A DNA stretch of 61,909 nucleotides from a virus. The notes beneath the pieces are model-generated. The model did no database searches and had not been told where the DNA came from. It saw only the letters and a list, made by a program, of their open reading frames with translations. Of this stretch, positions 16,026-49,829 are shown piece after piece (within the stretch, counting starts at the first letter, position 1; each line of letters begins with the position of its first letter). The stretch covers positions 1 through 61,909 of the IMG/VR virus record IMGVR_UViG_3300049811_000099; one strand, given 5' to 3'. The position numbers were made by a program, and so were the translations under genes.

Positions 16026-16705
16026 CCTGAATCAAGCTCTGCGGCATGTTGACCCGACCGCGGCATGCCCGCTAATCGGGTCTGCAGCATAGCCCGCGAT
16101 GCTTCAGGCTAGGGGGCATGCACCCATGCCGATATCGTGGCGCCTAGACCCGTTTCCGTGATTCCTAGACCCTATGCCGCAGGGCAAGCATGGGGGCCGA
16201 CGGGTCCTTCCGGGTGGCGGCCGAGCCGGGCGGGGGCGCAGAGCCCCGATTTGCAGAAATTTGTGAAAAACGGCTTAAAAGCAGTTCATTGCATATGTCC
16301 CTGAACCCTGAATCAAGCAGATCGGGCTTGTTTGATTGCTGAATCAGTTCGAGAGCGCAGTCTGATCCAGGAATCAGGCACAGCCGTTCAACTGATTCAT
16401 GGATCAAGCAACGGTCGGCCAAGTGATTCATGGATCAAACAGTGCCCCAACGTACTCAACGTAACCTGAAAAGGGCGTTTCCAAGTCGCTGCCGGCTCGG
16501 AAATTTTTTATTTTCTTCCCGCGTGCGCCGACTTAGAAATAGGGGTTTTGAGGTACAACAGGTACAGATAGTGATTCAGGAATTGACCCGTGGTCGGGTC
16601 GTGCGTGATGTTCTCGATGTACCTGAAAAAGCAAAGCCGCCCGAAGGCGGCCGTCGCAAAAGTGGGGCTCTGATTCCTGATTTAGAGTGATTCAGCAATC
16701 AACTT
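16026..16705. other. Candidate replication origin region: seven imperfect 14-bp palindromes TGATTS-NN-SAATCA, two CCTGAATCAAG half-sites and an AT-rich patch (16501-16519)
   Basis: 14-mers at 16333, 16363, 16393, 16424, 16572, 16671 and 16688. The region is adjacent to the 3' end of the primase-helicase gene. Confidence 0.45.
16625..16651 (-). terminator. Rho-independent terminator GCCGCC-ttcg-GGCGGC followed by TTTGCTTTTT, downstream of the primase-helicase gene
   Basis: Read on the minus strand, about 30 nt after the stop at 16682. Confidence 0.6.
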
Positions 16706-22868: not shown

Positions 22869-24920
22869 ATGCCCAATTACCTCGAAAAGCGACCTTGCGC
22901 CGTCTTCGACTCCGAGGTCTTGCCCAACTACTACAGCATCGGCTTTCTGTCGGTCGAGGACGGCCGGCAGAAGGTCTTCGAGATGTTCCCGGGCCAGCCG
23001 CTCGACAAGGCCGGCATCGCCACGATCTGCCGCAAGTGGCGCATCTTCTCGTTCAACGGCATTGGGTACGACATTCCTTTGCTGTTGTTCGCCATGAGTG
23101 GCGCAAGCAACGAGGAACTTGTTCAGGCCAGTCAGGAGATCATTGAGTTCGGCACTCCCCATTGGGTCTTCATGGAGCGCCGCGGGCTGTCGATCCCGGA
23201 CTGGCTAGATCACGTTGACTTGATGCAGGTTAGCCCTGGCTACCCGACGCAGCCTAGCCTCAAGTTGCTCGGTGGCCGACTGCACTCCCGCAAGATGCAG
23301 GAGATGCCGGTTCACCACACGGACTGGATCAACGCAGGACTTAGGGCGGTTGTCCGCGGCTACCACGGCAACGATCTGGCGACGACGCGGGATCTGCTGA
23401 ATGACCTGAAGCCTCAGATTGACCTTCGCTCGGTGATGAGTCAGGAGTACGGCATCGACCTTCGCAGCAAGAGCGATGCGCAGATTGCCGAAGCGGTGAT
23501 CAAGGTCGAGATGGAGCGCCTGACCGGCCGCAAGTTCTACAAGCCCGACCCGGGCAACCTGGAGACCTCGTTTCGCTACAAGCCGCCTGCCTTCATTGAG
23601 TTTCAGACGGGCTACATGCGAAACGTGTTCGAGACCGTCAAGAACGCCGTGTTCTACGTAGACTCGAAGGGAATCATCCATCTACCCGACGAGTTGAAGA
23701 AGTTGCTGATCACGATTGGCGACTCGCAGTACCAACTAGGCAACGGTGGTATCCACTCGACAGAGAGTCAGATTACCCATCGGTCAGATGACGAGCATGT
23801 CCTGCTGGATCGAGATGTCACCAGTTACTACCCGTTCATCATCAAGAACCTTGCCCTGTATCCAAAGCACATCGGCTCGAAGTTTTTGGGGGTCTACTCC
23901 AGCATTATTCAGAGGCGCATTGAAGCCAAGATCAAGGGCGACAAGAACACTGCCGAAACGCTCAAGATTGTGTTGAACGGGAGCTTCGGCAAGTTTGGCT
24001 CTCCCTACTCAGTTCTCTACAGCCCTGACCTCCTGATCCAGACGACGATCACCGGGCAGTTGTCGTTGCTCATGCTGATCGAGCAACTCGAACTCATGGG
24101 CATGCCCGTTGTCAGCGCCAACACGGACGGTTTCGTCACCAAGGTGCCACGAGCACGCCGGGGCGACTTCTTGGCTGCAGTGACCGACTGGGAGTGGCAG
24201 ACCGGCTTCACGACCGAGGAAACCGAATACCTCGCGCTGCATTCGCGCGACGTGAACTCCTACATTGCCGTGAAGCGAGACGGGAAGACCGGCAAGGTGT
24301 CAGCAAAGCGCAAGGGTGCTTACACCGAAGCCGGCCCAGGGCTACCGGGCGCAGCGGGCCAGAAGAAGAACCCGGACATGGACATCTCGACTGATGCTGC
24401 CGTGGCTTACCTGACTCACGGCACGCTGATCGAGAAGACCATCCGGGAGTGCCAGGACATTCGGAAGTTTGTCACTGTGCGTCGAGTCACGGGTGGAGCC
24501 GAGCAGGACGGTCTGTACGTCGGCAAGACGATCCGCTGGTACTACGCCACTGGCAACCGGAGCCCCTTGGTCTACGTCAAAGACAAGAAGACCGTGCCGG
24601 CGAGCATCGGCGCGAAGCCGTGCATGGAACTGCCCGATAGATTGCCCGACGACATTGACTACGACCGCTACATTCGCGAGGCATACGCGATCCTTCAGGA
24701 CGTAGGGCTCGACGGCATTGACCCCGCGCTCCGTGGTCGCACTGGCACGTTCTTCGGCCTGCTGCCAAAGCAGTTGACCCTGCACATTGTCGATGCTGTC
24801 ACCGGCAAGGCTTTGTGCGGCAAGGAGCGTGATTCTGTGCGAGACGCCTGGAGGGAGTACCGGCACGTTCCTGAGGGTCGTCGGCTGTGCTCGAAGTGCA
24901 AGAAGGGGGATGCGCTGTGA
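22869..24920 (+). CDS. DNA polymerase with an N-terminal DEDDy 3'-5' exonuclease; polymerase motifs read as family-B type
   Basis: Exo motifs VFDSEV, FNGIGYDIPLL and YHGNDLATTRDLL. Polymerase motifs DVTSYYPFI (DxxSLYP-like), KIVLNGSFGKFG (KxxxNSxYG-like) and SANTDGF (DTD-like). Confidence 0.8.
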   Translation: MPNYLEKRPCAVFDSEVLPNYYSIGFLSVEDGRQKVFEMFPGQPLDKAGIATICRKWRIFSFNGIGYDIPLLLFAMSGASNEELVQASQEIIEFGTPHWVFMERRGLSIPDWLDHVDLMQVSPGYPTQPSLKLLGGRLHSRKMQEMPVHHTDWINAGLRAVVRGYHGNDLATTRDLLNDLKPQIDLRSVMSQEYGIDLRSKSDAQIAEAVIKVEMERLTGRKFYKPDPGNLETSFRYKPPAFIEFQTGYMRNVFETVKNAVFYVDSKGIIHLPDELKKLLITIGDSQYQLGNGGIHSTESQITHRSDDEHVLLDRDVTSYYPFIIKNLALYPKHIGSKFLGVYSSIIQRRIEAKIKGDKNTAETLKIVLNGSFGKFGSPYSVLYSPDLLIQTTITGQLSLLMLIEQLELMGMPVVSANTDGFVTKVPRARRGDFLAAVTDWEWQTGFTTEETEYLALHSRDVNSYIAVKRDGKTGKVSAKRKGAYTEAGPGLPGAAGQKKNPDMDISTDAAVAYLTHGTLIEKTIRECQDIRKFVTVRRVTGGAEQDGLYVGKTIRWYYATGNRSPLVYVKDKKTVPASIGAKPCMELPDRLPDDIDYDRYIREAYAILQDVGLDGIDPALRGRTGTFFGLLPKQLTLHIVDAVTGKALCGKERDSVRDAWREYRHVPEGRRLCSKCKKGDAL

Positions 24921-25210
24921 AGAAGCCGTTCTACGAGAAGACTGAGAAAGAAAGCAATCTTCAGTCCGAGATCATCGAGCACGCGCATCGGCGCGGCTGG
25001 TTCGCGCAAAAGGTCGTGTTTGACGGTCGCCGCGGTTGCCCCGACGTGGTGGCCATTCGCAGAGGTCGGACTGTCTGGATTGAGGTCAAGCGGGAAGGTG
25101 ACGATCTGCGACGTCAACAGGCCCTCGTCGCGCGTGAGATGCGCGAGCACGGTGCAGAGGTCTTCGGCCCAGTGGACAACATTCGTGATGCGATGGAGAT
25201 TCTGAAGTGA
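24917..25210 (+). CDS. VRR-NUC domain nuclease
   Basis: GTG overlaps the polymerase stop (CTGTGA). PDVVAI...VWIEVKREGDDLRRQQ matches the D..ExK VRR-NUC core. Confidence 0.75.
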   Translation: MKKPFYEKTEKESNLQSEIIEHAHRRGWFAQKVVFDGRRGCPDVVAIRRGRTVWIEVKREGDDLRRQQALVAREMREHGAEVFGPVDNIRDAMEILK

Positions 25211-26286
25211 GCAATCTAAGAATCCTGCAAGGCGACTGCCTTGACGAGATGGAATGGATGGCCGATGAGACCGTCCAGTGCTGTGTCACCTCCCCGCCCT
25301 ACTTCGGTCTGCGCGACTACGGGCACGAGGGCCAGATCGGCTTGGAGAAAACGCTGGAAGAGTACGTGCGGAAGATGGTTGAGGTCTTCCGCGAAGTGCG
25401 TCGGATTCTCAAGCCGGATGGAACGCTTTGGTTGAACCTGGGTGACAGCTACGCGGCGAACAAGCGATCAGGCAGCACTAGCGCCGGATTCAATGCTCGC
25501 TATCACGGACAGTCTGAGAAGACCGATAGCAAGCAAGTCTTAGTTCACAAGGACATGAGCAGAGTGTCGATGCAGACCGGACTGCATCAGAAGCAACTTC
25601 TAGGAATGCCCTGGCGAGTCGCTTTTGCCTTGCAGGCCGATGGTTGGTACTTGCGCCAAGACATCATCTGGTGCAAGTCCAATCCAATGCCTGAAAGTGT
25701 CACGGATCGCTGCACCAAATCTCATGAGTACATCTTTCTCATGAGCAAGAGCCCGAAGTATTACTTCGACCATGAGGCGATCAAAGAGCCCGCCGCACCG
25801 AGTTCCTTAGCTCGTTGGGCACAAGACATTGAAGGACAGGCAGGAAGCAATCGAGTTCCGGGCAAAACCAACGGCAACATGAAAGCTGTCGGCGGACCTC
25901 GAAGCAAAAGAGACAGTTTCAAGCGCACGAACAGCAAGCGCGCTCAAGCCATTCCCGGGCAACGTGTTGGCACGCACAGAGAAGACCGCGAAGAAAGTAC
26001 CTACGACACGGCCATGCGCAATCGGCGCAGCGTATGGGATGTGGCAACGCGCCCGTACAAAGAAGCGCACTTCGCAACCTATCCCCCAAAGTTGATTGAA
26101 CCCTGCATCCTCGCGGGTAGCCGCCCGGGTGATGTTGTATTCGATCCGTTCGGCGGCAGCGGCACGACTGCGGCTGTCGCCTTGCTGCACGGCAGGCGTG
26201 CCATCACCTGCGAGTTGAATCCTGAATACATCAAACTCATCAAGCAGCGCACGAGCGCCGCAATGATTGAGTACGAAGAACTATGA
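25207..26286 (+). CDS. DNA methyltransferase (beta-class N6-adenine or N4-cytosine)
   Basis: Motif IV SPPYFGLRDY lies near the N-terminus and AdoMet motif I FDPFGGSGTTAAVA near the C-terminus. Confidence 0.85.
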   Translation: MSNLRILQGDCLDEMEWMADETVQCCVTSPPYFGLRDYGHEGQIGLEKTLEEYVRKMVEVFREVRRILKPDGTLWLNLGDSYAANKRSGSTSAGFNARYHGQSEKTDSKQVLVHKDMSRVSMQTGLHQKQLLGMPWRVAFALQADGWYLRQDIIWCKSNPMPESVTDRCTKSHEYIFLMSKSPKYYFDHEAIKEPAAPSSLARWAQDIEGQAGSNRVPGKTNGNMKAVGGPRSKRDSFKRTNSKRAQAIPGQRVGTHREDREESTYDTAMRNRRSVWDVATRPYKEAHFATYPPKLIEPCILAGSRPGDVVFDPFGGSGTTAAVALLHGRRAITCELNPEYIKLIKQRTSAAMIEYEEL

Positions 26287-27875
26287 CCGACATCTTCGAC
26301 TCCCGCATCGCCGCCAAGTTCGAGCTTGTGCAGCACGAGCGCGAGCAGATGCACGCCTACCAGCACGAGGTCGTTCAGTTCGCTCTGACGCACCCGTTCT
26401 GCATGCTGATGATCGACATGGGACTGGGCAAGACGGTCTCGTCGCTCACCGTCATTGGTGATCTGATCTCGTCGTTCCAGGTCGAGAAGGTGCTCGTGAT
26501 CGGGCCGCTGAAGGTCGTGACCGACACGTGGCCGAACGAGATCGCTGCATGGCGCCACACAGCCTGGATGAACTACACGCTGCTGCGTGAGAGCGACGAC
26601 GATCCGCGCCTTGCTGATGCTCGACGCCGTGCTCGTGAGTTCGGCCGTTCCGAAGGGCTCGGCCCAAGGGACGTGCAGGCTATGGTCACTCGTGCAGAGA
26701 CCGCAGAGCGCGAGAAGATCAGGCGCCAACTGGCGAAGAGCCCGGCATCGGTCCACATCATCAACCGTGAGAATCTCGAATGGTTAGTGAATCTGCATGG
26801 TCCGAAGTGGCCTTACCGATTCGTCATTATTGATGAATCGTCGGCTTTTAAGGACTACACATCCCATCGCTTCAAGGCACTTGCGAAGGTCCGCAACACC
26901 CCTGGACTGATCCAGCGGCTGATCTGCATGACCGCTACACCGGCAGCAGAGACATACGAACACTTGTTCGCTCAGTTCTATTTGCTTGACCGCGGCGAAC
27001 GGCTCGGCAAGGACATTGGGTGGTATCGGGACCGCTACTTCACGCACAACAAGTACAAGCGTAAGTACGTGCTGCGCCCGCAGGCCGAAGAAGAGATTCT
27101 CGAAAAGATCGCAGACATCTCTCTGGTCATGAAGGCCAAAGACTACTTGCCTCGTAACGAACCGACAGTCATTCGGCGCAACGTCAAGCTCAGTGCAGAG
27201 CAGCGCCAGATGATTAAGTCTTTTGAGAAGGAGTTCGTGCTTACGCTGACGGACGGCACTGAGATCGAGGCCAAGACAGCGGCAATGCTGTCTTCGATGT
27301 TGCTTCAACTTGCGTCAGGTGCGGTCTACGAAACGAAGTATGTTGGGGACTATGAGACCGAAGACCTAAAGAAGGTCAAGAAAGTTCATCACGTTCACGA
27401 CCACAAGATCGACACGCTGCGCGAGATATTCGAGGAAGCACAAACGCAGGGCGAGAACATCCTTGTTGCCTACTACTGGCAGTCGAGCCTTGCCCGACTT
27501 ACCAAGGCATTCCCCAAGGCTGTCGTGATGGACCGCGAAGCCAAGTGCTCGAAGGCTTGGAACGCCGGCAAGATCCCGATGCTCTTGATCCATCCGCAGA
27601 GCGCCGGTCACGGGCTGAACTTACAGAAGGGCGGGCACATTCTCGTCTTCTTCGACCTGATCTACTCGCTGGAGTATTACCTGCAGACCATCGGCCGCAT
27701 TGACCGCCAGGGGCAGACTGAGCCGGTCATCGTGGAACTCCTGGTGGCCGAAGGCACGCGCGATGTTCTGGTGGCTGACGCCAACCTCGCAAAGCAGGAT
27801 GCACAGGAGAAGTTGTTCACCATACTCAAGCGATTGATTAGAAAACTGCGTGGGCAGGAGGGCTATCGAGACTAA
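26283..27875 (+). CDS. SNF2/SF2 family helicase
   Basis: Motif I DMGLGKT, motif II IIDESSAFK and motif VI QTIGRIDRQGQ. ATGA overlap with the methyltransferase. Confidence 0.85.
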   Translation: MTDIFDSRIAAKFELVQHEREQMHAYQHEVVQFALTHPFCMLMIDMGLGKTVSSLTVIGDLISSFQVEKVLVIGPLKVVTDTWPNEIAAWRHTAWMNYTLLRESDDDPRLADARRRAREFGRSEGLGPRDVQAMVTRAETAEREKIRRQLAKSPASVHIINRENLEWLVNLHGPKWPYRFVIIDESSAFKDYTSHRFKALAKVRNTPGLIQRLICMTATPAAETYEHLFAQFYLLDRGERLGKDIGWYRDRYFTHNKYKRKYVLRPQAEEEILEKIADISLVMKAKDYLPRNEPTVIRRNVKLSAEQRQMIKSFEKEFVLTLTDGTEIEAKTAAMLSSMLLQLASGAVYETKYVGDYETEDLKKVKKVHHVHDHKIDTLREIFEEAQTQGENILVAYYWQSSLARLTKAFPKAVVMDREAKCSKAWNAGKIPMLLIHPQSAGHGLNLQKGGHILVFFDLIYSLEYYLQTIGRIDRQGQTEPVIVELLVAEGTRDVLVADANLAKQDAQEKLFTILKRLIRKLRGQEGYRD

Positions 27876-28942: not shown

Positions 28943-29983
28943 TCACGCATCTTGCGGGGCCTTCTTTTTCGCCAGCGTGCGGAGATGCTGCTCCCGCTGG
29001 ACGAGGCTTTCGGGCCGTAGGTGCGTGTAGCGAGCCAGCGTGCGCCAGTTGGTGTGCCCGGACACCATCGCAACCTCCTGGATCGCGAAGCCCAACTCGA
29101 ACAAGCGGCTGATGCCCTCGTGTCGAAGGTCGTGCAGCACCACGTCTTGCACGCCTGCCCGGTCTGCGGCTTGCCTGAAGTTGCGGCTCATGTTGATCGG
29201 GTGGTGCGGGAAGATCCGATCCGCCCTGCGAGGTTGCTGCACCAGCACATCGAATGATCCGTTGAGCAGGGGCACGACACAGTGGTTGCCGAACTTCTTC
29301 CGCGGGTGCTTGCGGTCGCGGATCACCACTGTCCGCTTGGCCTCGTCGAAGTCAGCCCAGGTGATGCGCGTCACCTCACCGATCCGCATGCACGAACGAA
29401 GGCAGAAGTCGATCAGGTCGCTCATCCTTACGGTCAACTGCTTGTGCAGCGCAGCCTTGATCTGAGCGATCTCTTCGTCGCTCACCCTGCGGTTGCGCTG
29501 CCCGGCTGCCTCGATGTAGCCGAGTTCCTTCATTCGCCTGCGGCAGCGATCCATGTCATCCCAAGGGATGCGGATGTCGAAGTGCTGCTCGGCTTGCCTG
29601 AGCACGCCGTAGAGACGGCACAGGTGCCAGTTCCTCGTGGACGCCGACACGTCAGCGTTGTCGAGCACCCACTTGGTCAGACCGTTGCCGGTGAGGTCCG
29701 CGATGGTCAGGTTCTTCAGCCTGCGCCTGAAGGTCGGAACGTCGTGCTTGACGTGACTGTCGGCCATTCGCCGCTTCGGGGCGATCTCGTTGAGATAGCG
29801 GCCGACCACCTCATCAAGCAGAAGAGCAGGGTGGTTGAGCCTGCGCTGCTTGAGTTCCCGCTCCCGCTCTGCGGACCAGTCCCGAGCTTCCCGCTTGGTG
29901 TCGAACGACTTGCTCTCGGGCTCGAACCCCTTGAGCCGCACAAGGCCCCTGTACCTATCCCCACGCTTGACGACGCTTGGCAC
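28943..29983 (-). CDS. int: Tyrosine recombinase (phage integrase)
   Basis: HDLRHEGISRLF and GHTNWRTLARYTH (R..HxxR..Y catalytic set). Start preferred at GTG 29983 (VPSVVKRGDRYRGLVRLKG, a typical integrase N-terminus). ORF-track start 30079 would read through repeat motifs. Confidence 0.85.
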   Translation of the reverse strand: MPSVVKRGDRYRGLVRLKGFEPESKSFDTKREARDWSAERERELKQRRLNHPALLLDEVVGRYLNEIAPKRRMADSHVKHDVPTFRRRLKNLTIADLTGNGLTKWVLDNADVSASTRNWHLCRLYGVLRQAEQHFDIRIPWDDMDRCRRRMKELGYIEAAGQRNRRVSDEEIAQIKAALHKQLTVRMSDLIDFCLRSCMRIGEVTRITWADFDEAKRTVVIRDRKHPRKKFGNHCVVPLLNGSFDVLVQQPRRADRIFPHHPINMSRNFRQAADRAGVQDVVLHDLRHEGISRLFELGFAIQEVAMVSGHTNWRTLARYTHLRPESLVQREQHLRTLAKKKAPQDA

Positions 29984-30364
29984 GTCAATCTCCGAATGAC
30001 GACTGAATGCCAAATTAGCACGTGGCGTAGAAGTGGTGTAGTGCGATTCGTGAGGCTCAGAAATACATCGACATTTCAATCACTTGCGAATGTCGGTGCG
30101 TGACGTAAAGTGGTGTAGCAGCGGAAGTCGATGGTGAATGAAATCAGACACTTACAGCGTCAGAAGTCACTTTGCAGTGGCATGACCGAATCGTTGTGAC
30201 GCGAATATGAGACACCGTTTGCTGAATGAAATCAGTCACTTACTGAAGTCATTCGCCTAAGTGGTGTAGTTTTGGTGTAGTGCGAAGAGCACTTCAGACC
30301 ACGAAAGTTCAAGCATCCACCACTTGTGTAATCTTGCCCAATCGCTAGGCAAGAGGACTAAGGG

Positions 30365-33849: not shown

Positions 33850-34065
33850 ATGAACAAGGCACTTCTGCACTTCGAGCAAGCCATCGGGCTTGGTCCGACG
33901 AAGGCTGCGCTCCTACTGGGCATAGCCTACGTGACCTATGCACAGGTGCGCTCGGGCTCGCGACCATTGCAGAAGTACCACGCGAGGCACATGGAAGCTC
34001 TTCTGCTTCTTCCTCCTTCGACTCTTCGCAGATTGATCAAGGGGCACGTGAATGGCGACCAATGA
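33850..34065 (+). CDS. Small HTH protein (71 aa) at the head of the late operon
   Basis: LGPTKAALLLGIAYVTYAQVRSG is a Cro-like HTH. Overlaps the TerS start by 14 nt. Confidence 0.5.
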   Translation: MNKALLHFEQAIGLGPTKAALLLGIAYVTYAQVRSGSRPLQKYHARHMEALLLLPPSTLRRLIKGHVNGDQ

Positions 34066-34645
34066 GCGGGTCAAAAAGGGCGGCAGCGCCTACGCCGACG
34101 AAGAGACCAAGGCCGGTATCTATGAAGGTCTGAACACGACTCAGTTTCAGCAACTCTTCAAGCGCGATTTCAGGGCTGTCCAGAAAGCCTTCTACGAAGC
34201 TGGCGTCGATGGCATCAAGCCGGTTGGCAAACGGTACGGCGCGGACATTTACGCTGTACACGACATTGCGCCGTACTTGGTCAAGCCAAAGATCGACGTG
34301 GAGGCGTACATCCGGAAGATGGATCACAAGGATCTTCCGAAGATGCTCACGAAGGAGTTCTGGGCGGGTCAGCGGTCGAAGCAGGACTACGAAGAGAAGG
34401 CCGGGCTGCTATGGCGCACCGAGCGCGTCGTGCAGGAGATGGGCGAGGTCTTCAAGCTCGTCAAGATGTCCGTGCTGCTGATGTCCGACGCCGTGGAGCG
34501 GCAGACTGAACTCACCGACAAGCAGCGGGACATCATCAAGTCGCTGACCCACGGAATGCTCGACGATCTGGTCAAGCGGATCGAGGACAAGTTCAAGGTG
34601 CCAACGAATGAACGTCAAGAAGCCATCCAAGACGAAGACCTATGA
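34052..34645 (+). CDS. terS: Terminase small subunit (DUF1441-like)
   Basis: Position directly upstream of and overlapping TerL. YAVHDIAPYLVKP and the helical C-terminus recall the DUF1441 small terminases. Confidence 0.6.
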   Translation: MATNERVKKGGSAYADEETKAGIYEGLNTTQFQQLFKRDFRAVQKAFYEAGVDGIKPVGKRYGADIYAVHDIAPYLVKPKIDVEAYIRKMDHKDLPKMLTKEFWAGQRSKQDYEEKAGLLWRTERVVQEMGEVFKLVKMSVLLMSDAVERQTELTDKQRDIIKSLTHGMLDDLVKRIEDKFKVPTNERQEAIQDEDL

Positions 34646-37094
34646 CTCCATCGGGGAGATCATTCTTGACCTGACGGCAATGCTCCGTCCACCGGAGCGC
34701 CTGTCCGTCGCCACTGCAGCCGAGAAGTACCGCTACATCAACCAGCCTGGGGCCTACGTCGGCCAGTGGAAGAACGCAACGGCTCCCTACATGGTCGAGC
34801 CAATGAACACGTTCACTTCTCGACAGTACAACGGGATGATCTTCGTTGGGCCTGCTCAGAGCGGGAAGGCGCTGTGCTTGAAGACTCCGATTGCCACGCT
34901 TAATGGTTGGAAGACCATGGGTACGATTGAGATCGGTGATGCCCTTTACGATGAAGCGGGCAAGCCGTGCGAGGTCTTCTGCGTCTCGCCGGTTATGCAC
35001 GACCATGAGTGCTTCCAGGTCTGCTTCGCAGGCTGTGCTCCCATCGTGGCTGACGCCGACCACCTTTGGCTTGTCCTTCGCAGCGGGGCTAGTGAGACTG
35101 TCACCACTCGACATTTGAACCCTAACACTGACGTTGTTCTTCGACACGACCGAGCATTCAAACTGAACAAGGTGATTCCGCACGAATCGGTTCCTGTGCG
35201 CTGCATCGGCGTCACTTCACCAAGCAGGCTATTTCAGGCCGGTCTTGATCGGATTCCAACCCACAACACCGACGCTCTCGTCATCAACACCCTGGCGTAC
35301 TCGATCAAGGTGGACCCGATGGACATGATGGTGGTCTGCCCCACCATGCTCGACGCCCGGGACTTCGGCATTCGCCGCGTGGACCGTCTGCACCGTCACA
35401 GTGAGCAGATTGGCGAGATGCTGCTGCCATCGGCCGACGCGGACAACCGCTACGACAAACAGTACACGACCGGGATGCTCTTTACGCTGTCGTGGCCCAC
35501 TCCGAGCCAACTGGCCGGCAAGCCCATCGGTCGGATCGTGCTCACCGACCGTGATCGGATGGTGGATGACGTTGAAGGTGACGGCGAGCCCTTCGACCTT
35601 GCCTCGAAGCGCACGACCACGTTCGGCTCCTACGCAATGACCGTGGCCGAGTCGTCACCATCGCGTGAAGTCTCGAACCCGAAGTGGATTCCGCAAAGTC
35701 CACATGAAGCCCCGCCCTGCGAGGGCATCCTGAAACTCTACAACCGCGGAGATCGCCGCCGCTGGTACTGGCCTTGCCCGCACTGCGGCGAATACTTCGA
35801 GGGCATGTTCAAGCATTTGATCTGGGATGCAGAACTGCCCGGCACAAACTTAGAGAAGGCAGCAACCGTCAAGATGGCATGCCCGCACAACGGCTGCATC
35901 ATCATGTCCGACGACCGAGACGAGATGAACTTTTGGGGTCAGTGGGTCAAGGACGGGCAGGGTGTTGACAACACCGGCCGAGTCTTCGGGCCTGAACCTC
36001 GAACAAGCATTGCCTCTTTCTGGCTGCGCGGCGTGGCAGCCGCGTTCACGTCTTGGCGCAAGCTGGTTGAGATGTATCTCAACGCCAATGACGAGTACGC
36101 TCGCACTGGCTCAGAGGAAGCCCTCAAGAAGTTCTACAACAACGACCTTGGCGAGCCCTACACACCACGCTCGCAAGGCGACACCCGTTTGCCCGAAGTG
36201 CTCAAGGCGCGTGCTGAGAAGTTGGCACCGCGACACGTCCCCAAGGGCGTGCGCTTTCTCGTGGCCGCAGTGGACGTGCAGAAGAATATGTTCGTCGTCC
36301 AGGTCTACGGGATCTTGCCCGGCCTCAAGTTCGACATGGTTCTCGTGGATCGCTTCGACATTCGCAAGAGCAAGCGAACTGATCACGACGATGAACGCCT
36401 TTGGGTGAAGCCCTCGGCCTATGTCGAAGACTGGGATGAGATCACCGAGCACGTCATCGACAAGGAGTACCCGCTTGACGACGGCAGCGGTCGCATGATG
36501 GGAATCAAGATTGTCGGCTGTGATTCCGGTGGTCGAGCAGGCGTTACGTCCATGGCGTACAGCTACTACCGACGCCTAGTTGAGCAAAACAAGCATCGAC
36601 GCTTCATTCTGCTCAAGGGTGATCCTTCACCCAATCAGCCGCGCACGCGAATCAGCTACCCGGACTCGCAAAAGAAGGACATGAAGGCCGGTGCGCGTGG
36701 TGACATTCCGATTCTTCTGCTGCAGTCAAACCTGCTCAAAGACGACCTGGACGGCCGCCTAGACTGTATGGAGCCGGGCAAGGGGATGATGCGCTTCCCG
36801 GATTGGTTGAGCGACTCGTTCTTCTCCGAGATGTGCGTCGAGGTGCGTACCGAGAAGGGATGGGAGAACCTGTCAGGTCAGCGCAACGAGGCATGGGACT
36901 TGAGCTACTACTCAATCGGGTTGTGCGTGTCGGAACTGATTCGAGCGGAGAAGATCAGGTGGGATGATCCGCCTGGATGGGCTGCCGAGTGGGATAAGAA
37001 CGATCTGGTGCGCAAGCCGGAAGAGAAACCACGTTTCGCCAACCCGCTACAATCCGCATACGATTTCAGCAGTTTCGCCAAGGCTCTTGCTTGA
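34608..37094 (+). CDS. terL: Terminase large subunit, lambda GpA type, interrupted by a mini-intein in the Walker A loop
   Basis: GPAQSGK[intein]TDALVINTLAYSIKVDPMDMMVVCPT matches the GpA-family N-terminal ATPase motif. 828 aa including the 133-aa insertion. Confidence 0.9.
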   Translation: MNVKKPSKTKTYDSIGEIILDLTAMLRPPERLSVATAAEKYRYINQPGAYVGQWKNATAPYMVEPMNTFTSRQYNGMIFVGPAQSGKALCLKTPIATLNGWKTMGTIEIGDALYDEAGKPCEVFCVSPVMHDHECFQVCFAGCAPIVADADHLWLVLRSGASETVTTRHLNPNTDVVLRHDRAFKLNKVIPHESVPVRCIGVTSPSRLFQAGLDRIPTHNTDALVINTLAYSIKVDPMDMMVVCPTMLDARDFGIRRVDRLHRHSEQIGEMLLPSADADNRYDKQYTTGMLFTLSWPTPSQLAGKPIGRIVLTDRDRMVDDVEGDGEPFDLASKRTTTFGSYAMTVAESSPSREVSNPKWIPQSPHEAPPCEGILKLYNRGDRRRWYWPCPHCGEYFEGMFKHLIWDAELPGTNLEKAATVKMACPHNGCIIMSDDRDEMNFWGQWVKDGQGVDNTGRVFGPEPRTSIASFWLRGVAAAFTSWRKLVEMYLNANDEYARTGSEEALKKFYNNDLGEPYTPRSQGDTRLPEVLKARAEKLAPRHVPKGVRFLVAAVDVQKNMFVVQVYGILPGLKFDMVLVDRFDIRKSKRTDHDDERLWVKPSAYVEDWDEITEHVIDKEYPLDDGSGRMMGIKIVGCDSGGRAGVTSMAYSYYRRLVEQNKHRRFILLKGDPSPNQPRTRISYPDSQKKDMKAGARGDIPILLLQSNLLKDDLDGRLDCMEPGKGMMRFPDWLSDSFFSEMCVEVRTEKGWENLSGQRNEAWDLSYYSIGLCVSELIRAEKIRWDDPPGWAAEWDKNDLVRKPEEKPRFANPLQSAYDFSSFAKALA
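34869..35267 (+). mobile_element. Mini-intein (133 aa, no homing endonuclease) with class-3 WCT signature, inside terL
   Basis: Block A (A)LCLKTPIATLNGWKTMGTIEIGD, block B DADHLW, block F VPVRCIGV, block G IPTHN followed by +1 Thr. Excision restores GPAQSGKT. GC3 is visibly lower than in the exteins. Confidence 0.8.
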
Positions 37095-45191: not shown

Positions 45192-45430
45192 TCGAGCTTT
45201 ACCACGGTCTTCGCCGTGACGTGAGTCTGCTGCTTTCGGAGGGTCATCTACACGCAAGAGACTACCCGATAGCAGTCGTGTGGAGTGAATCGAGGATCGT
45301 GCGTCAGCGCAACGCCATGCGCGTCAAGCTGGACACCTCGTTGATGCAGATGGTCATTGGTTCGGTGTTCGACAAGAAGGCAGGCAAGCAACTGTCGGAC
45401 ATCCTGAAGAGGCTCGACGAAAGTGACTGA
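44757..45430 (+). CDS. Tail assembly chaperone fusion (gpGT-like) made by -1 programmed frameshift at 45107..45113
   Basis: The -1 frame is open from 45080 to the TGA at 45428-45430. The zero-frame heptamer G GGA AAA lies inside the overlap. Confidence 0.7.
45107..45113 (+). other. Slippery heptanucleotide G GGA AAA (X XXY YYZ) for the G/GT frameshift
   Basis: Zero-frame codons GGA AAA preceded by G. Same class as the lambda G GGA AAG site. Confidence 0.7.
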
Positions 45431-48400
45431 CCAGAAGACGCTCGACCTGATCATCCGCGCCCAGTTGAAGGGCGGCAAGGATATCGCCTCGATCACCAAG
45501 CAGATTGAGGAACTGGGTCGAGCGATTGAAAGTCAGTCGGCCGCCGCGCAACGCGGCGAGTCGTCAATCGACGAACTCAAGGCGTCCCTCGCGGCGCTGA
45601 AGATCACGCAAGACGGTCTGCTCGCGCAAGGCCGCCTTCTTGCCAGTTTCCAGAAGCTCGGAGAGACGATCTCCGACATCAAGGGTCGTGTCGATCAGGC
45701 CCGTGCTGCGTATGACGGCTACGTCACCAGCATCGCGGATGTCGAAGAAAAGACCGCCAAGCAGATCCGCGAGCAGGATCGCTTGGAGAAGGCTTACAAC
45801 CGCGCGCAGACTGCGTTGGAGAAGCAGAGTGCTCGGTACGAGCAACTCGGCAATGCGCTTCGAGAACTCGGTCTTGATACCAATGACTTGCTTGGGTCGC
45901 AGACGCGCCTGGAGCGCACGGCCGCGAACCTGGGCGTCACCATCGGCAAAGGCCAGGAGGCGATTGCCGGGTATGCCGACACGGTGCGCAAGGCGCGCGA
46001 GCAAACCGCCACCCTGGGCAAGCAGCAGCGTGATGCTGCCCGTGACGCGGAATTGTTCGCTGCTGCCCAAGAGCGCGCAGAACGCGCTGCCCAGCAGCGG
46101 GCTCAAGACGCACAGACATTCCTCGTGGAGCGGCCCGCCGAGCGACAGGCTGCGGCTGCGGCTGCAGCCCGAGCCGACGCTGAAGCACAGGCCCAACTTC
46201 AGCGCCAGCGCGCACTGGCGGAACTGCGGCGCGACATCGAAGAGCGGAGTGCTCAGTCTGCTCGTGAGCAGGCCCGTGATACAGGCTTGCGCAAGACCGC
46301 TGATGATGCCGAAGCCGCAGCCCGTGGCTACACCACGCTGGCACGTGCGTCGAACAACCTGCGACCGCGGGTCGTGTCGCTGCGAGAGGCAATCACCGGC
46401 ATCACCGATCCGGCAACCGCAGCCCGCACATCCCTGTCCGGGGTTGAGAAGCAGATCGAGGAACTCGGCGGTGCGCTCGACCCCGCCAAGAACTCGATTC
46501 GTGAATACCAGGAACGACTCAGGGAACTTCAGGCTGCTCAGAAGGCTATCTCGGGTCAGGCGAACCTGATCGACGATTTCAGGAAACAGACCGTCGCCCT
46601 TCGCGAGCAACGGGCAGAACTGCAGGCTGCCCGTGCGCAGGTCGCACAGTACGCCGCAGCGGTGCGCGAGGGTGGCGCGGCTGCCGAGCAGTTCACGCAG
46701 CCACTGGCCGAAGCGGAAGCCCGCCTTCGTCGTGCTGCCGTGGCCATGCGCCAGCAGGTCGAAGCCACCCGGCAAAGCCGCGAGGCGCTTCGTGCCGCAG
46801 GCATTGACACCCGCAACCTTGCCGATGCTCAGGATCGACTGACCACGGCTGCACAGCGCAGCACGGCGGCAGTACGACAACTGGCCGAAGGTGCGCGCAA
46901 TGTTGGCACTGCCAGCAAGCAAGGTGCTGAAGGCTTCTCGGTCTTCAACGACGAGGGTCGGACTACCCTGTCGCTTGCACAGCGCATTCGCGGCGAGATT
47001 CTTGCGCTCACAGCCACCTACATCGGTCTTCAGGGCGTACTTACCCTAGCTGGTGATTCCCTGCGTGCTTCTACGGCGCAGGAAGGTCTGCGCAACACGC
47101 TCGCGTTCGCGCTCGGCAGCGATGGCGCGCAAGTCACACAGCAGATCGAGTATCTGCGCCAGCAGGCGGATCGCCTGGGCATTGCGTTCGACGAGGCGTC
47201 CAAGTCTTACTCGCGCTTCGCGGCTGCGGCCATTCGGTCTGGTGCGCCGCTTCAAGAAGCCAACTTCATCTTCGAGTCGTTTGCCGAGGTTGGCCGGGTC
47301 ATCAACCTGACCCCTGATCAGATCAACGGCATCTTCAACGCCATCGGCCAGTCGTTCTCGAAGGGCAAGATTCAGGCCGAAGAACTGCGCCAGCAGATCG
47401 GTGAGAGGTTGCCCGGTGCGTTCGCATTCGCGCAAGAGGCGCTGCGCAAGCAGTTCCCGGATCTCAACAAGGCGCTGGAGCAGGGCCTCGTGGGCGCCGA
47501 GAACATGGCGATCATCGCTGAGTCGGTGCGCCGTGCTGCCGCTGGTCAGCTTCCCGCGGCCATCCGCTCGCTTGACGCCGAGCAGCAGCGGTTCAACAAC
47601 TCGGTGCTCTTCTTCAAGCAGGAGATTGCTGACTCGGGCTTCGGTCAGGCGTACATCAATCTTCTCAAGGAACTCACCGAACTCCTGAAGAGCGAAGACG
47701 GCAAGCAGTTTGCGCAAGACCTGTCCGGCTTGTTCAGCGCCGTCACCAGCGTCATTCGTTTTCTGGTCGAGAACTTCCGCGAGCTTCAGGCTGTCGCGGG
47801 CATCGTCGCCGGGCTCCTTGGGGTCAAGGTCTTCGGTGCGTTGATTGCTGGTGCGACAGCGGCAAAGGCAGCCGTAGCTGGACTCGCACTCTCACTCACG
47901 GCGCTGCAGAAGGCGCTGCTTGTTCTGAGTGCGTTCGTCGTCGGCTGGAACATTGGTTCGCTGCTCCGCGACAAGTTCGTGGAAGTCGAGCTATTCGGCA
48001 TTGCGCTTGTGCGCGGCTTGCTAGAAGCCTTCGCTAACCTGAAGGCTGGAATCCTTGTCGTCTTCTTCGATCTGCCTCGCATTGCGTCGAATGCATTCAA
48101 GAGCCTGATCAACCTGTTCAACAACGTCTTCGCGCGTCCGCTGATCCTGGTGATGCGGAACATTGCAGACGCGCTCCAACTGGACGGTGCTGTCCGCGGC
48201 TTGGACCGTGCGCTTGATGCGCTGACGCTGCGCCTGAACTTCGAGCTTGGAGACAACGCTGCCGGCGCTCGCCGTCAGGCTGAAGCTGAACTGCGGCAGA
48301 TCCGCGAGATCACCGACCTGATGGCTGACGATGCGATTCGTCGTCGTCAGCCGCAAGTCAGCCGCCCGGGACAGCCGACAGCCGCGCCACCCGCTCGCAG

Positions 48401-49829
48401 CACTTCCAACAACACCGGCCCGACTGAAGGCGAGATCAATGCCCGCCAGCGGAAGATCGAGGCGCTCGACAACGCACTGAACGCGCTCGACGCGCGAGTC
48501 AACCGTACCGACACGCAGACGCTGGCTTCACAACTAGCCGCTGTCGATCTGGAAGCCAAGCGCATTCAGAAGCAGATCGACGAGATCAAGAAGTTCAACC
48601 CCGAGGCTGCTGGGCAGGCGCAGGTTCGCTTCGACGCGCTCGTGGCCGAGCAGCGTGCGGCCGTCACCAAGAAGTTCAACGATCAGATTGCGGCAGACCG
48701 CGAGGCGCTGCTCAAGAAGGTCGAGGCTGCAGAGGCTGCCGCTGGACGCAAGGAACGGCTCAACCTGCAAGCCCGCCTGGACGCCATTCGCAAGGACTAC
48801 GCCCAGCTATACCGGCAGATCGAAGAGGATCGTGTCAAGGCGCAGGCGAACAACCTGTCCACGGGCGATCTCGACGGACTGCTCGACCGCACGCGACAAG
48901 CCGAGCAAGACCGGCTTGCCGCTGAAGAGCGCAAGTTCAACCTCGAAGAACTGCAGCGCCGCGAGACGCAGATCAACGATCTCGTCAAGGCCCGCGAACA
49001 GACCTTGCGGACTATCGAGCAAGTCGCGCAGGCCGGGCTCATCACGCGACAAGAGGCAGACCAGCAGTCGCTGAATGTCCTCGCGCAGACGCAGCCGAAG
49101 ATCGTCGAGCTTGCCGAAGCAGGGCGGCAGTTCGCGATTTCGATGCAAGGCGCCATCGACCCGGCAGCCTTGGACGAGTTCATCACGAAGTTGGATCTCG
49201 CGGTGGCCAGCGCAGGCGGGCTCTCCACGGAGTTCGACCGTACCGGAGCCATCATTCGCAACGGCATTGGTCGTGGCGTGGACTCGGTGCTCAACAACAC
49301 GGCCGACAAGATTCAGCAGGTTGTCGAGGGCACGGCCAAGTGGGGCGACGTGTTCCAGTCTGTCAGCACGACAATCCTGCAGTCGCTGGCGCAGATCCTC
49401 CGTGAGATCGGCATTGCGATCTTGCGTCAGCAAGTCCTGCTGGCCTTGCGAGTTACCGGGCTTCCTGTCCCGGTGGCGCACAGTGGGGCAGTCGTCGGTC
49501 AGGGCTCCAACCGGACTCGCAACGTCTCGCCGCTGCTCTTCGCTGGAGCCCCGCGTTACCACACGGGCGGCATCGTCGGCCTCGCACCTGACGAGTACCC
49601 GGCGATCCTGCAGAAGAACGAGGAAGTGCTGTCCACGAGCGACCCGCGCAACGTGATGAACGGCGGGCTCTCCCGCGGCGCCGCACAGCCCAAGGCACAA
49701 CGCTTCGTTCTCGTAGACGACCGCAGCAGGGTGGCCGAGGCGATGTCCGGTGCCGAAGGCGAAGAAGTGACCATGGTGCATCTGCGGAAGAACATCCCGA
49801 CGCTGCGCCAGTTGATCAAGGGTGGGTGA
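45423..49829 (+). CDS. Tape measure protein (1468 aa)
   Basis: Largest ORF. Highly helical and Ala/Gln/Arg-rich, with a central hydrophobic block. Follows G/GT. Confidence 0.9.
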   Translation: MTDQKTLDLIIRAQLKGGKDIASITKQIEELGRAIESQSAAAQRGESSIDELKASLAALKITQDGLLAQGRLLASFQKLGETISDIKGRVDQARAAYDGYVTSIADVEEKTAKQIREQDRLEKAYNRAQTALEKQSARYEQLGNALRELGLDTNDLLGSQTRLERTAANLGVTIGKGQEAIAGYADTVRKAREQTATLGKQQRDAARDAELFAAAQERAERAAQQRAQDAQTFLVERPAERQAAAAAAARADAEAQAQLQRQRALAELRRDIEERSAQSAREQARDTGLRKTADDAEAAARGYTTLARASNNLRPRVVSLREAITGITDPATAARTSLSGVEKQIEELGGALDPAKNSIREYQERLRELQAAQKAISGQANLIDDFRKQTVALREQRAELQAARAQVAQYAAAVREGGAAAEQFTQPLAEAEARLRRAAVAMRQQVEATRQSREALRAAGIDTRNLADAQDRLTTAAQRSTAAVRQLAEGARNVGTASKQGAEGFSVFNDEGRTTLSLAQRIRGEILALTATYIGLQGVLTLAGDSLRASTAQEGLRNTLAFALGSDGAQVTQQIEYLRQQADRLGIAFDEASKSYSRFAAAAIRSGAPLQEANFIFESFAEVGRVINLTPDQINGIFNAIGQSFSKGKIQAEELRQQIGERLPGAFAFAQEALRKQFPDLNKALEQGLVGAENMAIIAESVRRAAAGQLPAAIRSLDAEQQRFNNSVLFFKQEIADSGFGQAYINLLKELTELLKSEDGKQFAQDLSGLFSAVTSVIRFLVENFRELQAVAGIVAGLLGVKVFGALIAGATAAKAAVAGLALSLTALQKALLVLSAFVVGWNIGSLLRDKFVEVELFGIALVRGLLEAFANLKAGILVVFFDLPRIASNAFKSLINLFNNVFARPLILVMRNIADALQLDGAVRGLDRALDALTLRLNFELGDNAAGARRQAEAELRQIREITDLMADDAIRRRQPQVSRPGQPTAAPPARSTSNNTGPTEGEINARQRKIEALDNALNALDARVNRTDTQTLASQLAAVDLEAKRIQKQIDEIKKFNPEAAGQAQVRFDALVAEQRAAVTKKFNDQIAADREALLKKVEAAEAAAGRKERLNLQARLDAIRKDYAQLYRQIEEDRVKAQANNLSTGDLDGLLDRTRQAEQDRLAAEERKFNLEELQRRETQINDLVKAREQTLRTIEQVAQAGLITRQEADQQSLNVLAQTQPKIVELAEAGRQFAISMQGAIDPAALDEFITKLDLAVASAGGLSTEFDRTGAIIRNGIGRGVDSVLNNTADKIQQVVEGTAKWGDVFQSVSTTILQSLAQILREIGIAILRQQVLLALRVTGLPVPVAHSGAVVGQGSNRTRNVSPLLFAGAPRYHTGGIVGLAPDEYPAILQKNEEVLSTSDPRNVMNGGLSRGAAQPKAQRFVLVDDRSRVAEAMSGAEGEEVTMVHLRKNIPTLRQLIKGG

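Follow-up and report, generated by a model that had tools for sequence, protein, structure and literature searches.

The splicing mechanism of class 3 mini-inteins has been established experimentally (PMC5222942, PMC2807308, PMC7664689, PMC6195587), and class 3 inteins in the P-loop of terminases were first described in 2010. Two members with solved structures, M. smegmatis DnaB-1 (Msm DnaB-1; 6BS8/6OWN) and M. chimaera DnaB-1 (Mch DnaB-1; 6RIX/6RIY), are endonuclease-free, comprise 139-145 aa and interrupt the K-S/T step of the P-loop in an actinobacterial replicative helicase. The mycobacteriophage TerL1-a/b P-loop inteins and MP-Be DnaB are likewise class 3 elements inserted at K-T, with Thr as the +1 residue (Kelley 2016; Tori 2010). 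The intein-bearing mycobacteriophage terminases belong to Terminase_1 or Terminase_6, mostly with endonucleases, and none was found in other mycobacteriophage terminase families (Kelley 2016); the actinophage class 3 inteins in a 2025 survey span 225 to 359 aa. A TerL intein from a proteobacterial phage, Caulobacter phage phiCbK, was published in 2012 (Gill et al. 2012).

This study analysed a 61,909-nt stretch of viral DNA (the window) in which a large terminase gene carries a 133-aa insertion that is very probably a class 3 mini-intein, breaking the Walker A loop of a GpA-family TerL between Lys87 and Thr221. The window intein is 38% identical end to end to Msm and Mch DnaB-1 and shares with them the P-loop K-S/T insertion, the lack of an endonuclease, Ala1, His65, Trp67, the block F Cys, Thr-His-Asn, a hydroxyl +1 nucleophile and Cys48; it differs in its host protein, in having Thr rather than Ser at +1, in five extra Cys and in the replacements G56C and L123Q. 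It departs from the mycobacteriophage examples in residing in a GpA-type enzyme, and from phiCbK, with which it has in common the K-S/T junction type, the missing N-terminal nucleophile (Pro1 in phiCbK) and the His-Asn end, in that the latter is 341 aa long, sits in a non-GpA terminase and is followed by S at +1. Overall, the window intein is a further member of a large, well-studied family.

Insertion site in the GpA-type terminase

The interrupted gene encodes 828 aa (Table 1). Pfam identified GpA_ATPase (PF05876, 4.6e-59), broken into two stretches that flank the insert, and GpA_nuclease (PF20454, 4.2e-62); together with the Walker A motif restored upon removal of the insert (GPAQSGKT), these domains place the protein in the GpA family. 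Genes for a lambda-type gpW, a portal and an S49 protease adjoin terL, and the gene order of small terminase followed by terL is the same in L006, L008 and L089. The carrier is a high-GC phage with a probably proteobacterial host. Neither tRNAs nor a further intein copy were found within the window.

TerL reads ...FVGPAQSGK, followed by ALCLKTPIATLNGWKTMGTIEIGD ... DADHLW ... VPVRCIGV ... IPTHN and then TDALVINTLAYSIKVDPMD, such that the in-frame insert separates the Lys and the Thr of the Walker A loop (GxxxxGKT). Across the empty site, the TerLs of Pectobacterium MA11, Aeromonas phiWae15 and Burkholderia AH2 align without any gain or loss of residues (FVGPAQSGK-TDSIVINGLAYSVKVDPMD). Of the intein-less alleles the closest is P0001, a metagenomic TerL of 695 aa that is 97.6% identical (17 differences) and reads GPAQSAK-TDSLVIN at the insertion point; the spliced gene, at 2088 nt, has exactly the length of P0001 and aligns to it without an indel. 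Of 102 alleles typed at the GpA TerL site, 86 had no insertion. As is expected of an intein, the insertion is therefore missing from orthologues, and its excision rejoins a conserved host motif. The junction can be set directly after GK, with Ala as residue 1, because both the intein-less alleles and the end-to-end alignment with Msm DnaB-1 (which starts ALAL...) place it there. The initial annotation had proposed that a 133-aa insertion splits the TerL P-loop and that removing it yields a contiguous GxxxxGKT; both proposals were borne out, the coordinates being exact, and no insertion of the same length is kept at this site in P0001.

Table 1. Features of the terminase region (window coordinates unless stated otherwise)
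Feature	Position	Strand	Evidence
Small terminase subunit (DUF1441 type), overlaps terL start	34052..34645	+	Pfam DUF1441 3.3e-5
terL ORF, GpA-type large terminase (TerL)	34608..37094	+	Pfam
N-extein of TerL, residues 1-87, ends GPAQSGK (Walker A first part)	34608..34868	+	Pfam, intein-less TerL alignment
Mosaic extein tract, 5' part, ~110 nt upstream of insertion point (interval includes ~60 nt of intein; extein part stops at 34868)	34758..34927	+	Identity profile vs P0001/P0002
Class 3 mini-intein (very probable), 133 aa, TerL A88-N220	34869..35267	+	phmmer, AlphaFold, Foldseek, column statistics, GC3
C-extein of TerL, residues 221-828 and stop	35268..37094	+	Pfam; P0001 alignment without indel
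GpA_ATPase and GpA_nuclease within C-extein	TerL residues 224-446 and 468-772		Pfam

Class 3 signature and competing readings

The key intein residues are Ala1, Cys48, His65 (B:10), Trp67 (B:12), Cys112 (F:4), Thr131 (G:5), His132, Asn133 and Thr+1. Position 1 (Ala88) thus provides no Cys, Ser or Thr nucleophile, whereas the WCT triplet is complete (W154/C199/T218 in TerL numbering, W67/C112/T131 in the intein) and aligns with the Trp67/Cys118/Thr137-type positions of 6bs8 and 6rix; block B H65, penultimate H132, C-terminal N133 and +1 T221 are also present. In the family column statistics, drawn from the 150 best intein relatives, residue 1 is Ala in 148/171 and Pro in 11 (either one in 159/171), and GK precedes the intein in 107/171. 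HxW was found in 188/192 relatives, Trp B:12 in 189/193, the F:4 Cys in 182/185, the G:5 Thr in 180/181 and terminal HN in 176/181, with T (92) or S (85) at +1; Cys48 is kept in 160/191. Position 3, where the window has Cys90, differs widely among relatives (A 116, D 21, S 20, C 5). Arg120, where the closest relatives have the block F His, was considered as a defect and rejected, Arg ranking second in frequency in that column (H 84, R 31, S 27). Every residue that the initial annotation had listed (the WCT signatures, the block order, Ala1 and Thr+1) was verified by alignment and column counts, pointing to membership of the class 3 inteins, with splicing by that route as a prediction.

Homology and predicted fold agree with the earlier identification of the insert as an intein. 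A phmmer search of PDB chains matched window intein residues 1-133 end to end with residues 1-139 of the Msm DnaB-1 class 3 mini-intein (6bs8/6own, E 4e-18) and also matched 6rix (E 5e-19). In a library of 1.84 billion proteins, 5146 cluster representatives matched the insert with E<=1e-3, of which 2635 reached E<=1e-10; judged by sequence, its similarity to inteins is far in excess of chance. AlphaFold gave a pLDDT of 34 from the single sequence and, rerun with an 11-sequence alignment as input, a model with a pLDDT of 94.5 consisting of a HINT fold alone. The best Foldseek matches of this predicted model are the class 3 inteins 6riy, 6rix and 6bs8 (E ~1e-11), though with TM-scores of only ~0.6 and an rmsd of ~5.9 Å against the crystal structures, and 50/50 of the PDB matches listed have a HINT fold (inteins, Hedgehog or BIL domains).

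Among the alternatives, a decayed, splicing-dead intein, or else a sequencing or assembly chimera, in a non-viable genome with the terminase gene as a pseudogene, appears very unlikely. Such a reading could draw on the missing endonuclease, on an unusually high Cys content (7/133) and on changes in two conserved columns, Cys56 where 159/188 relatives have Gly and Gln123 where 172/182 have Leu, either of which could slow or impair splicing; additionally, the exact TerL protein was unmatched in the searched collections, as was the junction 42-mer in viral and genome contigs. However, terL keeps an intact, in-frame ORF with every catalytic residue present, the exteins are undamaged at 97.6% identity to an intein-less allele, and the surrounding genome resembles that of an intact phage. 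When the intein is compared with that of P0009, its nearest relative (58% aa identity), non-synonymous divergence (pN 0.30) lies well below synonymous divergence (pS 0.74), a comparison that is qualitative only because pS is saturated. Mini-inteins of like length and the same family also splice in experiment (PMC5222942).

Still less probable is a class 1 intein starting at Cys90 (ALCLKTP), in which Cys90 would be the first nucleophile and Ala-Leu would be left in the mature protein. A Cys followed by L-x-x-T-P does look like the block A start of standard inteins, and the ACF1 allele at the same site (see below) does start with Cys; that Cys, however, aligns to position 1 and not to the variable position 3 occupied by Cys90, and nearly all relatives have Ala or Pro at position 1. 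Moreover, the junction defined by the empty alleles lies immediately behind GK, the Walker A GKT would be lost if splicing began at Cys90 and left GKALT behind, and the insert combines a full WCT triad with homology to inteins of demonstrated class 3 mechanism. Both the class 1 start and a class 2 (KlbA-type) mechanism were rejected on account of where the junction lies, the WCT triad and Thr+1.

Hint/intein profiles (Pfam PF14890, PF13403 and others; NCBIfam) gave no match to the 133-aa insert at E<=1, so that the lack of a Hint HMM hit, which the initial annotation had named as counting against an intein, literally holds. The Pfam and NCBIfam models likewise miss the homologous mini-intein of P0171; the missing match is therefore attributed to a blind spot of these libraries for class 3 mini-inteins and is outweighed by the E of 4e-18 to solved inteins. 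The same gap would lend itself to the view of the insert as an accessory ATPase subdomain that does not splice and is retained in the mature terminase, the least credible reading and one already contradicted by an insert that splits the P-loop at GK-T, is absent from most typed alleles including one so nearly identical, and is homologous to class 3 inteins and like them in predicted fold.

Endonuclease loss and probable acquisition of the mini-intein

No homing-endonuclease domain was found in the window intein, as the initial annotation had stated: the element is 133 aa long, with ~40 residues between W67 and Cys112, and its predicted model shows the HINT fold alone. Between these two residues, relatives have a ~215-aa LAGLIDADG_3 insertion, and the corresponding gap falls within window intein residues 84-101. 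A LAGLIDADG homing endonuclease has been lost from the window element and kept by related alleles at the same site. Because the intein is without an endonuclease, autonomous homing is not expected today, and it could spread only by recombination or with the help of an endonuclease acting in trans.

The GK-T site of GpA terminases is intein-occupied, with or without LAGLIDADG_3, in 16/120 of the nearest database clusters, and two Rhodobacteraceae MAGs also bear an intein there. The GpA TerL of Acidovorax phage ACF1 (QXV72285.1) and those of P0003, P0004, P0005, P0038-41, P0048, P0054, P0063 and P0064 carry inteins at the identical site that share H-x-W, the block F Cys and THN-T with the window intein; in contrast to it, they are 346-357 aa long with LAGLIDADG (PF14528), and the ACF1 intein starts with Cys1 rather than Ala1. 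The ACF1 intein is unannotated in GenBank, and the word 'intein' is absent from that phage's paper; elements of this kind, ACF1's included, stay unannotated because Pfam and NCBIfam miss class 3 mini-inteins. The closest intein relatives, P0009 (138 aa, 56% identity) and P0012 (139 aa, 51% identity), occupy the same site, lack an endonuclease and have the linker motif D-V/L-V-x-RHD-x-x-F in common with the window intein, whereas their exteins are just ~72% identical to those of the window and P0012 starts with Pro1. In view of these occurrences, the suggestion that no intein was known in a GpA terminase of a proteobacterial phage was overstated; its novelty is further weakened by phiCbK, whose class 3-type TerL P-loop intein dates from 2012. 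As a side observation, Gly stands at position -2 in 14/16 vs 46/86 GpA-TerL alleles, counts that are uncorrected for phylogeny.

Third-codon GC (GC3) is 0.624 in the intein vs 0.750 in the exteins, where the lowest 133-codon window does not fall below 0.669; the P0009 intein is also low (0.58 vs 0.81 in its exteins). Around the insertion point the exteins are mosaic. The N-extein is 98-100% identical to P0001 at the nucleotide level over the first ~120 nt and 97% identical at nt 91-150; at spliced-gene nt ~150-300, identity to P0001 falls from 97-100% to 70-73% and identity to the intein-less P0002 climbs to 88-92%. Mismatches against P0001 number 26/120 within 60 nt of the junction vs 184/1968 elsewhere (Fisher p 1e-4). 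The lower third-codon GC and the horizontal acquisition put forward in the initial annotation are thus supported, the latter by GC3 and the mosaic tract together. It appears that the intein entered the phage lineage by recombination or a trans-endonuclease event, bringing ~150 nt of flanking extein; the tract could equally mean that the P0001 lineage lost an intein precisely or exchanged alleles. The patchy presence relative to P0001, the GC3 deficit and the mosaic tract are those of a mobile allele. With its visible recombination tract, the near-isogenic pair of the window (intein-plus) and contig ERZ27315043:k141_724052 (intein-minus) is a handy natural system for the movement of endonuclease-free inteins among phages.

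Predicted splicing and consequences for DNA packaging

The window intein is predicted to splice by the class 3 route, as judged from its homologues MP-Be DnaB, Msm DnaB-1 and Mch DnaB-1. Cys112 (C199, block F), activated by His65 in a site shaped by Trp67 and Thr131, would attack the Lys87-Ala88 bond to form a block F thioester branched intermediate, the first covalent step known from MP-Be DnaB and Msm DnaB-1 (PMC2807308, PMC5222942). Asn133 (N220) would then cyclise with the help of His132, freeing a ~15-kDa intein, and an O-to-N acyl shift would give a 695-aa TerL with the GPAQSGKT loop restored and the ligated junction ...FVGPAQSGK-TDALVINTLAYSIK. Thr221 would serve twice, as splice nucleophile at +1 and as the Thr of Walker A. 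Since the 828-aa precursor cannot form GxxxxGKT, it is expected to be inactive in ATP-driven DNA packaging until spliced.

A role beyond that of a passenger, in which the intein gates DNA packaging in response to the redox state, is conceivable but rather doubtful. In M. smegmatis DnaBi1, Cys48 is essential for splicing, and a reversible disulfide between Cys48 and the catalytic Cys blocks splicing under oxidative stress (PMC6195587). The window intein retains Cys48 and the catalytic block F Cys112, along with four more cysteines that are atypical of the family (C3, C38, C52 and C56); the literature terms Cys48 'non-conserved'. If this reading were true, TerL would mature later in an oxidatively stressed host, packaging would be delayed with it, and the strong conservation of Cys48 among the relatives would make such gating general for class 3 inteins in the P-loop of phage terminases.

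For annotation, terL should be recorded as intein-containing with a mature product of 695 aa; left unrecorded, the 828-aa protein would distort terminase phylogenies and packaging-type predictions. A compact 133-aa class 3 intein that accepts K(-1) and T(+1) as junction residues may be of interest for protein engineering as well. Overall, the 'classic' K-T P-loop intein, hosted by Terminase_1 and Terminase_6, also occurs in the GpA family, and a single GpA-terminase site hosts full-length, intermediate and several independently miniaturised intein forms.

Probable class 3 character of the insertion in the large terminase

The terL gene of the window encodes an 828-residue large terminase (TerL) of the lambda GpA family (Pfam GpA_ATPase, 4.6e-59; GpA_nuclease, 4.2e-62), in which the GpA_ATPase match is split in two and its larger stretch resumes at residue 224. 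The protein reads ...MIFVGPAQSGK / ALCLKTPIATLNGWKTMGTIEIGD...DADHLW...VPVRCIGVTSPSRLFQAGLDRIPTHN / TDALVINTLAYSIKVDPMD..., the slashes marking the junctions of a 133-residue insertion whose boundaries had been placed to the exact nucleotide by the initial annotation. terL belongs to a lambda-like head module: a small terminase of DUF1441 type overlaps its start, and genes for gpW, a portal of the lambda family, an S49 prohead protease and the major capsid protein follow in that order. The window also encodes two methyltransferases, has no tRNAs within its 61.9 kb, and appears to be a complete siphophage, temperate and related to Casjensviridae. Its nearest isolated phages, Achromobacter AXY1/phiAxp-2 and Burkholderia AH2, match it at only ~71-75% of nucleotides in stretches of the portal and TerL genes, and neither the exact TerL protein nor the junction 42-mer had a match in the collections searched. 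Separately, residues 23-346 of the N6_N4 DNA methylase match a 221-position Pfam profile, so that the domain holds ~100 surplus residues; phage methylases with insertion elements are known from earlier reports.

Features of the window and their coordinates
Feature	Position	Strand	Basis
Prim-Pol	16682-19213	-	window gene
DNA polymerase	22869-24920		window gene
N6_N4 DNA methylase	25207-26286		Pfam
SNF2 helicase	26283-27875		window gene
Integrase	28943-30079	-	window gene
terL ORF, 828 codons	34608-37094	+	ORF and Pfam
Gly86 of TerL (-2)	34863-34865		
Insertion (class 3 mini-intein, predicted)	34869 (A88) to 35267 (end of N220)	+	translated ORF
Cys48 of the intein	35010-35012		
Tape-measure protein	45423-49829		window gene

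The insertion is very probably a class 3 mini-intein that is predicted to splice, and this earlier interpretation is supported by homology, by the modelled fold and by the catalytic residues. The initial annotation had named the lack of a Hint HMM hit as one of three separate outcomes that would each speak against an intein, and Pfam and NCBIfam HMMs indeed returned no match to the 133-aa insertion; yet phmmer searches of PDB sequences matched it to the inteins MsmDnaB-1 of Mycobacterium smegmatis (6BS8/6OWN; E 4e-18, residues 1-133 aligned to 1-139) and MchDnaB-1 of M. chimaera (6RIX/6RIY; E 5e-19), both class 3 mini-inteins characterised by crystallography and biochemistry (PMC7664689, PMC6195587, PMC5222942). 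Because of these matches, and because Pfam models also fail on the homologous mini-intein that another terminase of the GpA family, P0171, carries, the HMM negative is attributed to a blind spot of both libraries, which miss class 3 mini-inteins altogether. The same blindness leaves the 351-aa intein in the TerL of Acidovorax phage ACF1 (QXV72285.1; record L001, 208-3432) unannotated. AlphaFold reached a pLDDT of 34 from the single sequence and 94.5 when eleven aligned inteins of GpA terminases were supplied, giving an all-beta model for which a Foldseek search of the PDB placed the three class 3 intein structures on top (E ~1e-11), followed by gp41-1, Prp8 inteins, Hedgehog and BIL domains; each of the 50 matches listed has the HINT fold, with moderate TM-scores of ~0.6.

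Numbered from A88, the intein carries Ala1, His65 (B:10) and Trp67 (B:12) in DADHLW, Cys112 (F:4) in VPVRC, and Thr131-His132-Asn133 (G:5-7), with Thr at +1. The catalytic triad of MchDnaB-1 is Cys124, His65 and Thr143, with Trp67 (PMC7664689), and His65 and Trp67 are numbered identically in the two inteins. Searched exhaustively with HMMER, 1.84 billion cluster representatives yielded 5146 relatives at E<=1e-3. Among the best 150 of these, position 1 is Ala in 148/171 (Pro 11, Cys 3), preceded by GK in 107/171; B:10 and B:12 form HxW in 188/192, F:4 is Cys in 182/185, G:5 is Thr in 180/181, the terminal dipeptide is HN in 176/181, and +1 is Thr (92), Ser (85) or Cys (4). The window departs from only two strongly conserved columns, with Cys56 in place of Gly (159/188 relatives) and Gln123 in place of Leu (172/182); its Arg120 stands at a position that is His in the closest relatives and often Arg across the column (H 84, R 31, S 27). 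A class 1 start at the Cys of ALCLKTP was rejected because this residue, position 3, lies in a variable column (A 116, D 21, S 20, C 5) and because splicing from there would leave a loop reading GKALT instead of GKT. The top-scoring relatives (P0121-P0124 and similar) are long proteins of 1400-1800 aa with four matched stretches, and appear to hold two related class 3 inteins apiece.

Empty alleles, probable acquisition and endonuclease loss

TerLs of the isolated phages Pectobacterium MA11/MA12, Aeromonas phiWae15, Salmonella SAP012 and Proteus pPM_01 are 57-63% identical to that of the window by tblastn; each match falls into two pieces that skip the insertion, and a multiple alignment shows FVGPAQSGK|TDSIVINGLAYSVKVDPMD running through the gap in these proteins. 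A much nearer empty allele, the 695-aa P0001, comes from an ENA metagenome contig of 57 kb whose genes are arranged in the same order. Subtracting 399 nt from the window terL leaves 2088 nt, the exact length of the P0001 gene, and TerL without the insertion differs from P0001 at 17 of 695 residues (97.6% identity; 89.9% at the nucleotide level). Automatic typing of the P-loop covered 102 entries (the window, phage ACF1 and those listed relatives in which it succeeded): 16, the window and ACF1 among them, have an insertion at this position and 86 have none; P0054 and P0063, two more relatives with inteins, were included manually after this screen. Gly at -2 (xGK) occurs in 14/16 intein-bearing vs. 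46/86 empty GpA alleles (Fisher p 0.012, phylogeny uncontrolled), many of the latter reading SAK or CAK, a bias that may stem from a preference for certain homing or splice sites. Additionally, P0055, a phage terminase of GpA type with 71% identity to the window TerL, is filed in a eukaryotic proteome set (eukprot Opistho-2), most likely as phage or bacterial contamination of the dataset.

The window intein appears to be a mobile acquisition that is now immobilised, a reading on which composition, mosaicism, the range of forms at the site and sequence constraint all bear. As noted initially, GC3 is lower in the intein (0.624) than in the exteins (0.750), where no 133-codon window falls below 0.669; the nearest intein, that of P0009, has a like contrast (0.58 vs. 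0.81). The window gene and that of P0001 are 97-100% identical in nucleotides along their initial ~150 nt, 70-73% in 60-nt windows across the insertion point, and ~90-95% again by ~50 nt downstream; over this low-identity tract, a second empty allele, P0002 (83% overall), rises to 88-92% identity to the window. Mismatches to P0001 number 26/120 within 60 nt of the junction on both sides vs. 184/1968 elsewhere (Fisher p 1e-4), and residues 57-90 hold 7 of the 17 amino-acid differences. Co-conversion of flanking exteins at intein gain would leave such a mosaic tract, and precise loss of the intein in a sister lineage would also be expected, equally, to do so. The horizontal acquisition suggested initially is favoured by the GC3 deficit together with the mosaic tract around the site.

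At the same GpA site, full-length inteins of 346-357 aa with LAGLIDADG_3 (P0003, P0004, P0005, P0038-41, P0048, P0054, P0063, P0064 and phage ACF1), an intermediate of 231 aa (P0118) and mini-inteins of 133-150 aa are found. The inteins of the window, P0009 and P0012 have a linker motif in common, and that of P0049 is in essence the P0064 intein from which the endonuclease has been cleanly deleted; therefore, the endonuclease was lost more than once. The window and P0009 inteins retain 58% amino-acid identity with saturated synonymous sites (pN 0.30, pS 0.74), which indicates that the splicing domain is still under selection.

Terminase inteins in other phages

The K|T position is the "classic" P-loop insertion, and those of mycobacteriophages were found in Terminase_1 and Terminase_6-like proteins only (Kelley et al. 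2016). A 2025 survey lists 293 actinophage TerL inteins, those of class 3 being 225-359 aa in size, and the TerL intein of the proteobacterial phage phiCbK, published in 2012, begins with Pro1 and is flanked by K130 and S472. By tblastn, related inteins are present in terminases of isolated E. coli T4-like phages, Stenotrophomonas SOVA965, Rhodobacter RcMenchie and Vibrio 489E54-1. No published mention of an intein in a GpA-family terminase was found, and the word "intein" is absent from the ACF1 genome paper. Public sequences nevertheless hold such inteins in ACF1, in 16/120 nearest protein clusters and in two Rhodobacteraceae MAGs, so that, with phiCbK, the initial annotation's claim to know of no lambda-GpA case in a proteobacterial phage was overstated. 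The unreported aspects are only the host terminase family and a size that is very small among class 3 inteins of phages.

Predicted splicing and its consequence for TerL

By analogy with the class 3 pathway established for MP-Be DnaB (PMC2807308) and for the Msm DnaB-1, Mle DnaB and Bvi IcmO mini-inteins (PMC5222942), we infer that Cys112 would attack the Lys87-Ala88 bond to form a block F thioester branch, after which the N-extein would be transferred to the Thr221 hydroxyl, Asn133 cyclisation would free the intein, and an O-N shift would yield the 695-aa TerL with GPAQSGKT restored. Thr221 would therefore act as the nucleophile in splicing and also supply the Thr of Walker A, a dual use likewise described for the P-loop Ser of DnaB (PMC6195587).

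In MsmDnaB-1 (DnaBi1), Cys48, termed non-conserved by the authors, is essential to splicing and, in oxidatively stressed conditions, is linked by a reversible disulfide to the catalytic Cys of block F (PMC6195587). This column is Cys in 160/191 closest relatives and in the window, whose intein has 7 Cys in 133 residues (5.3%; positions 3, 34, 38, 48, 52, 56 and 112) vs. 0.9-3.6% in related GpA-terminase inteins. Since Cys48 is kept and the intein is Cys-rich, redox-gated maturation of the packaging motor is conceivable, if unlikely. The unspliced precursor itself should neither bind nor hydrolyse ATP nor assemble into the motor, as has been argued for mycobacteriophage TerL inteins (Kelley et al. 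2016) and for the P-loop inteins of RadA and DnaB (PMC6195587).
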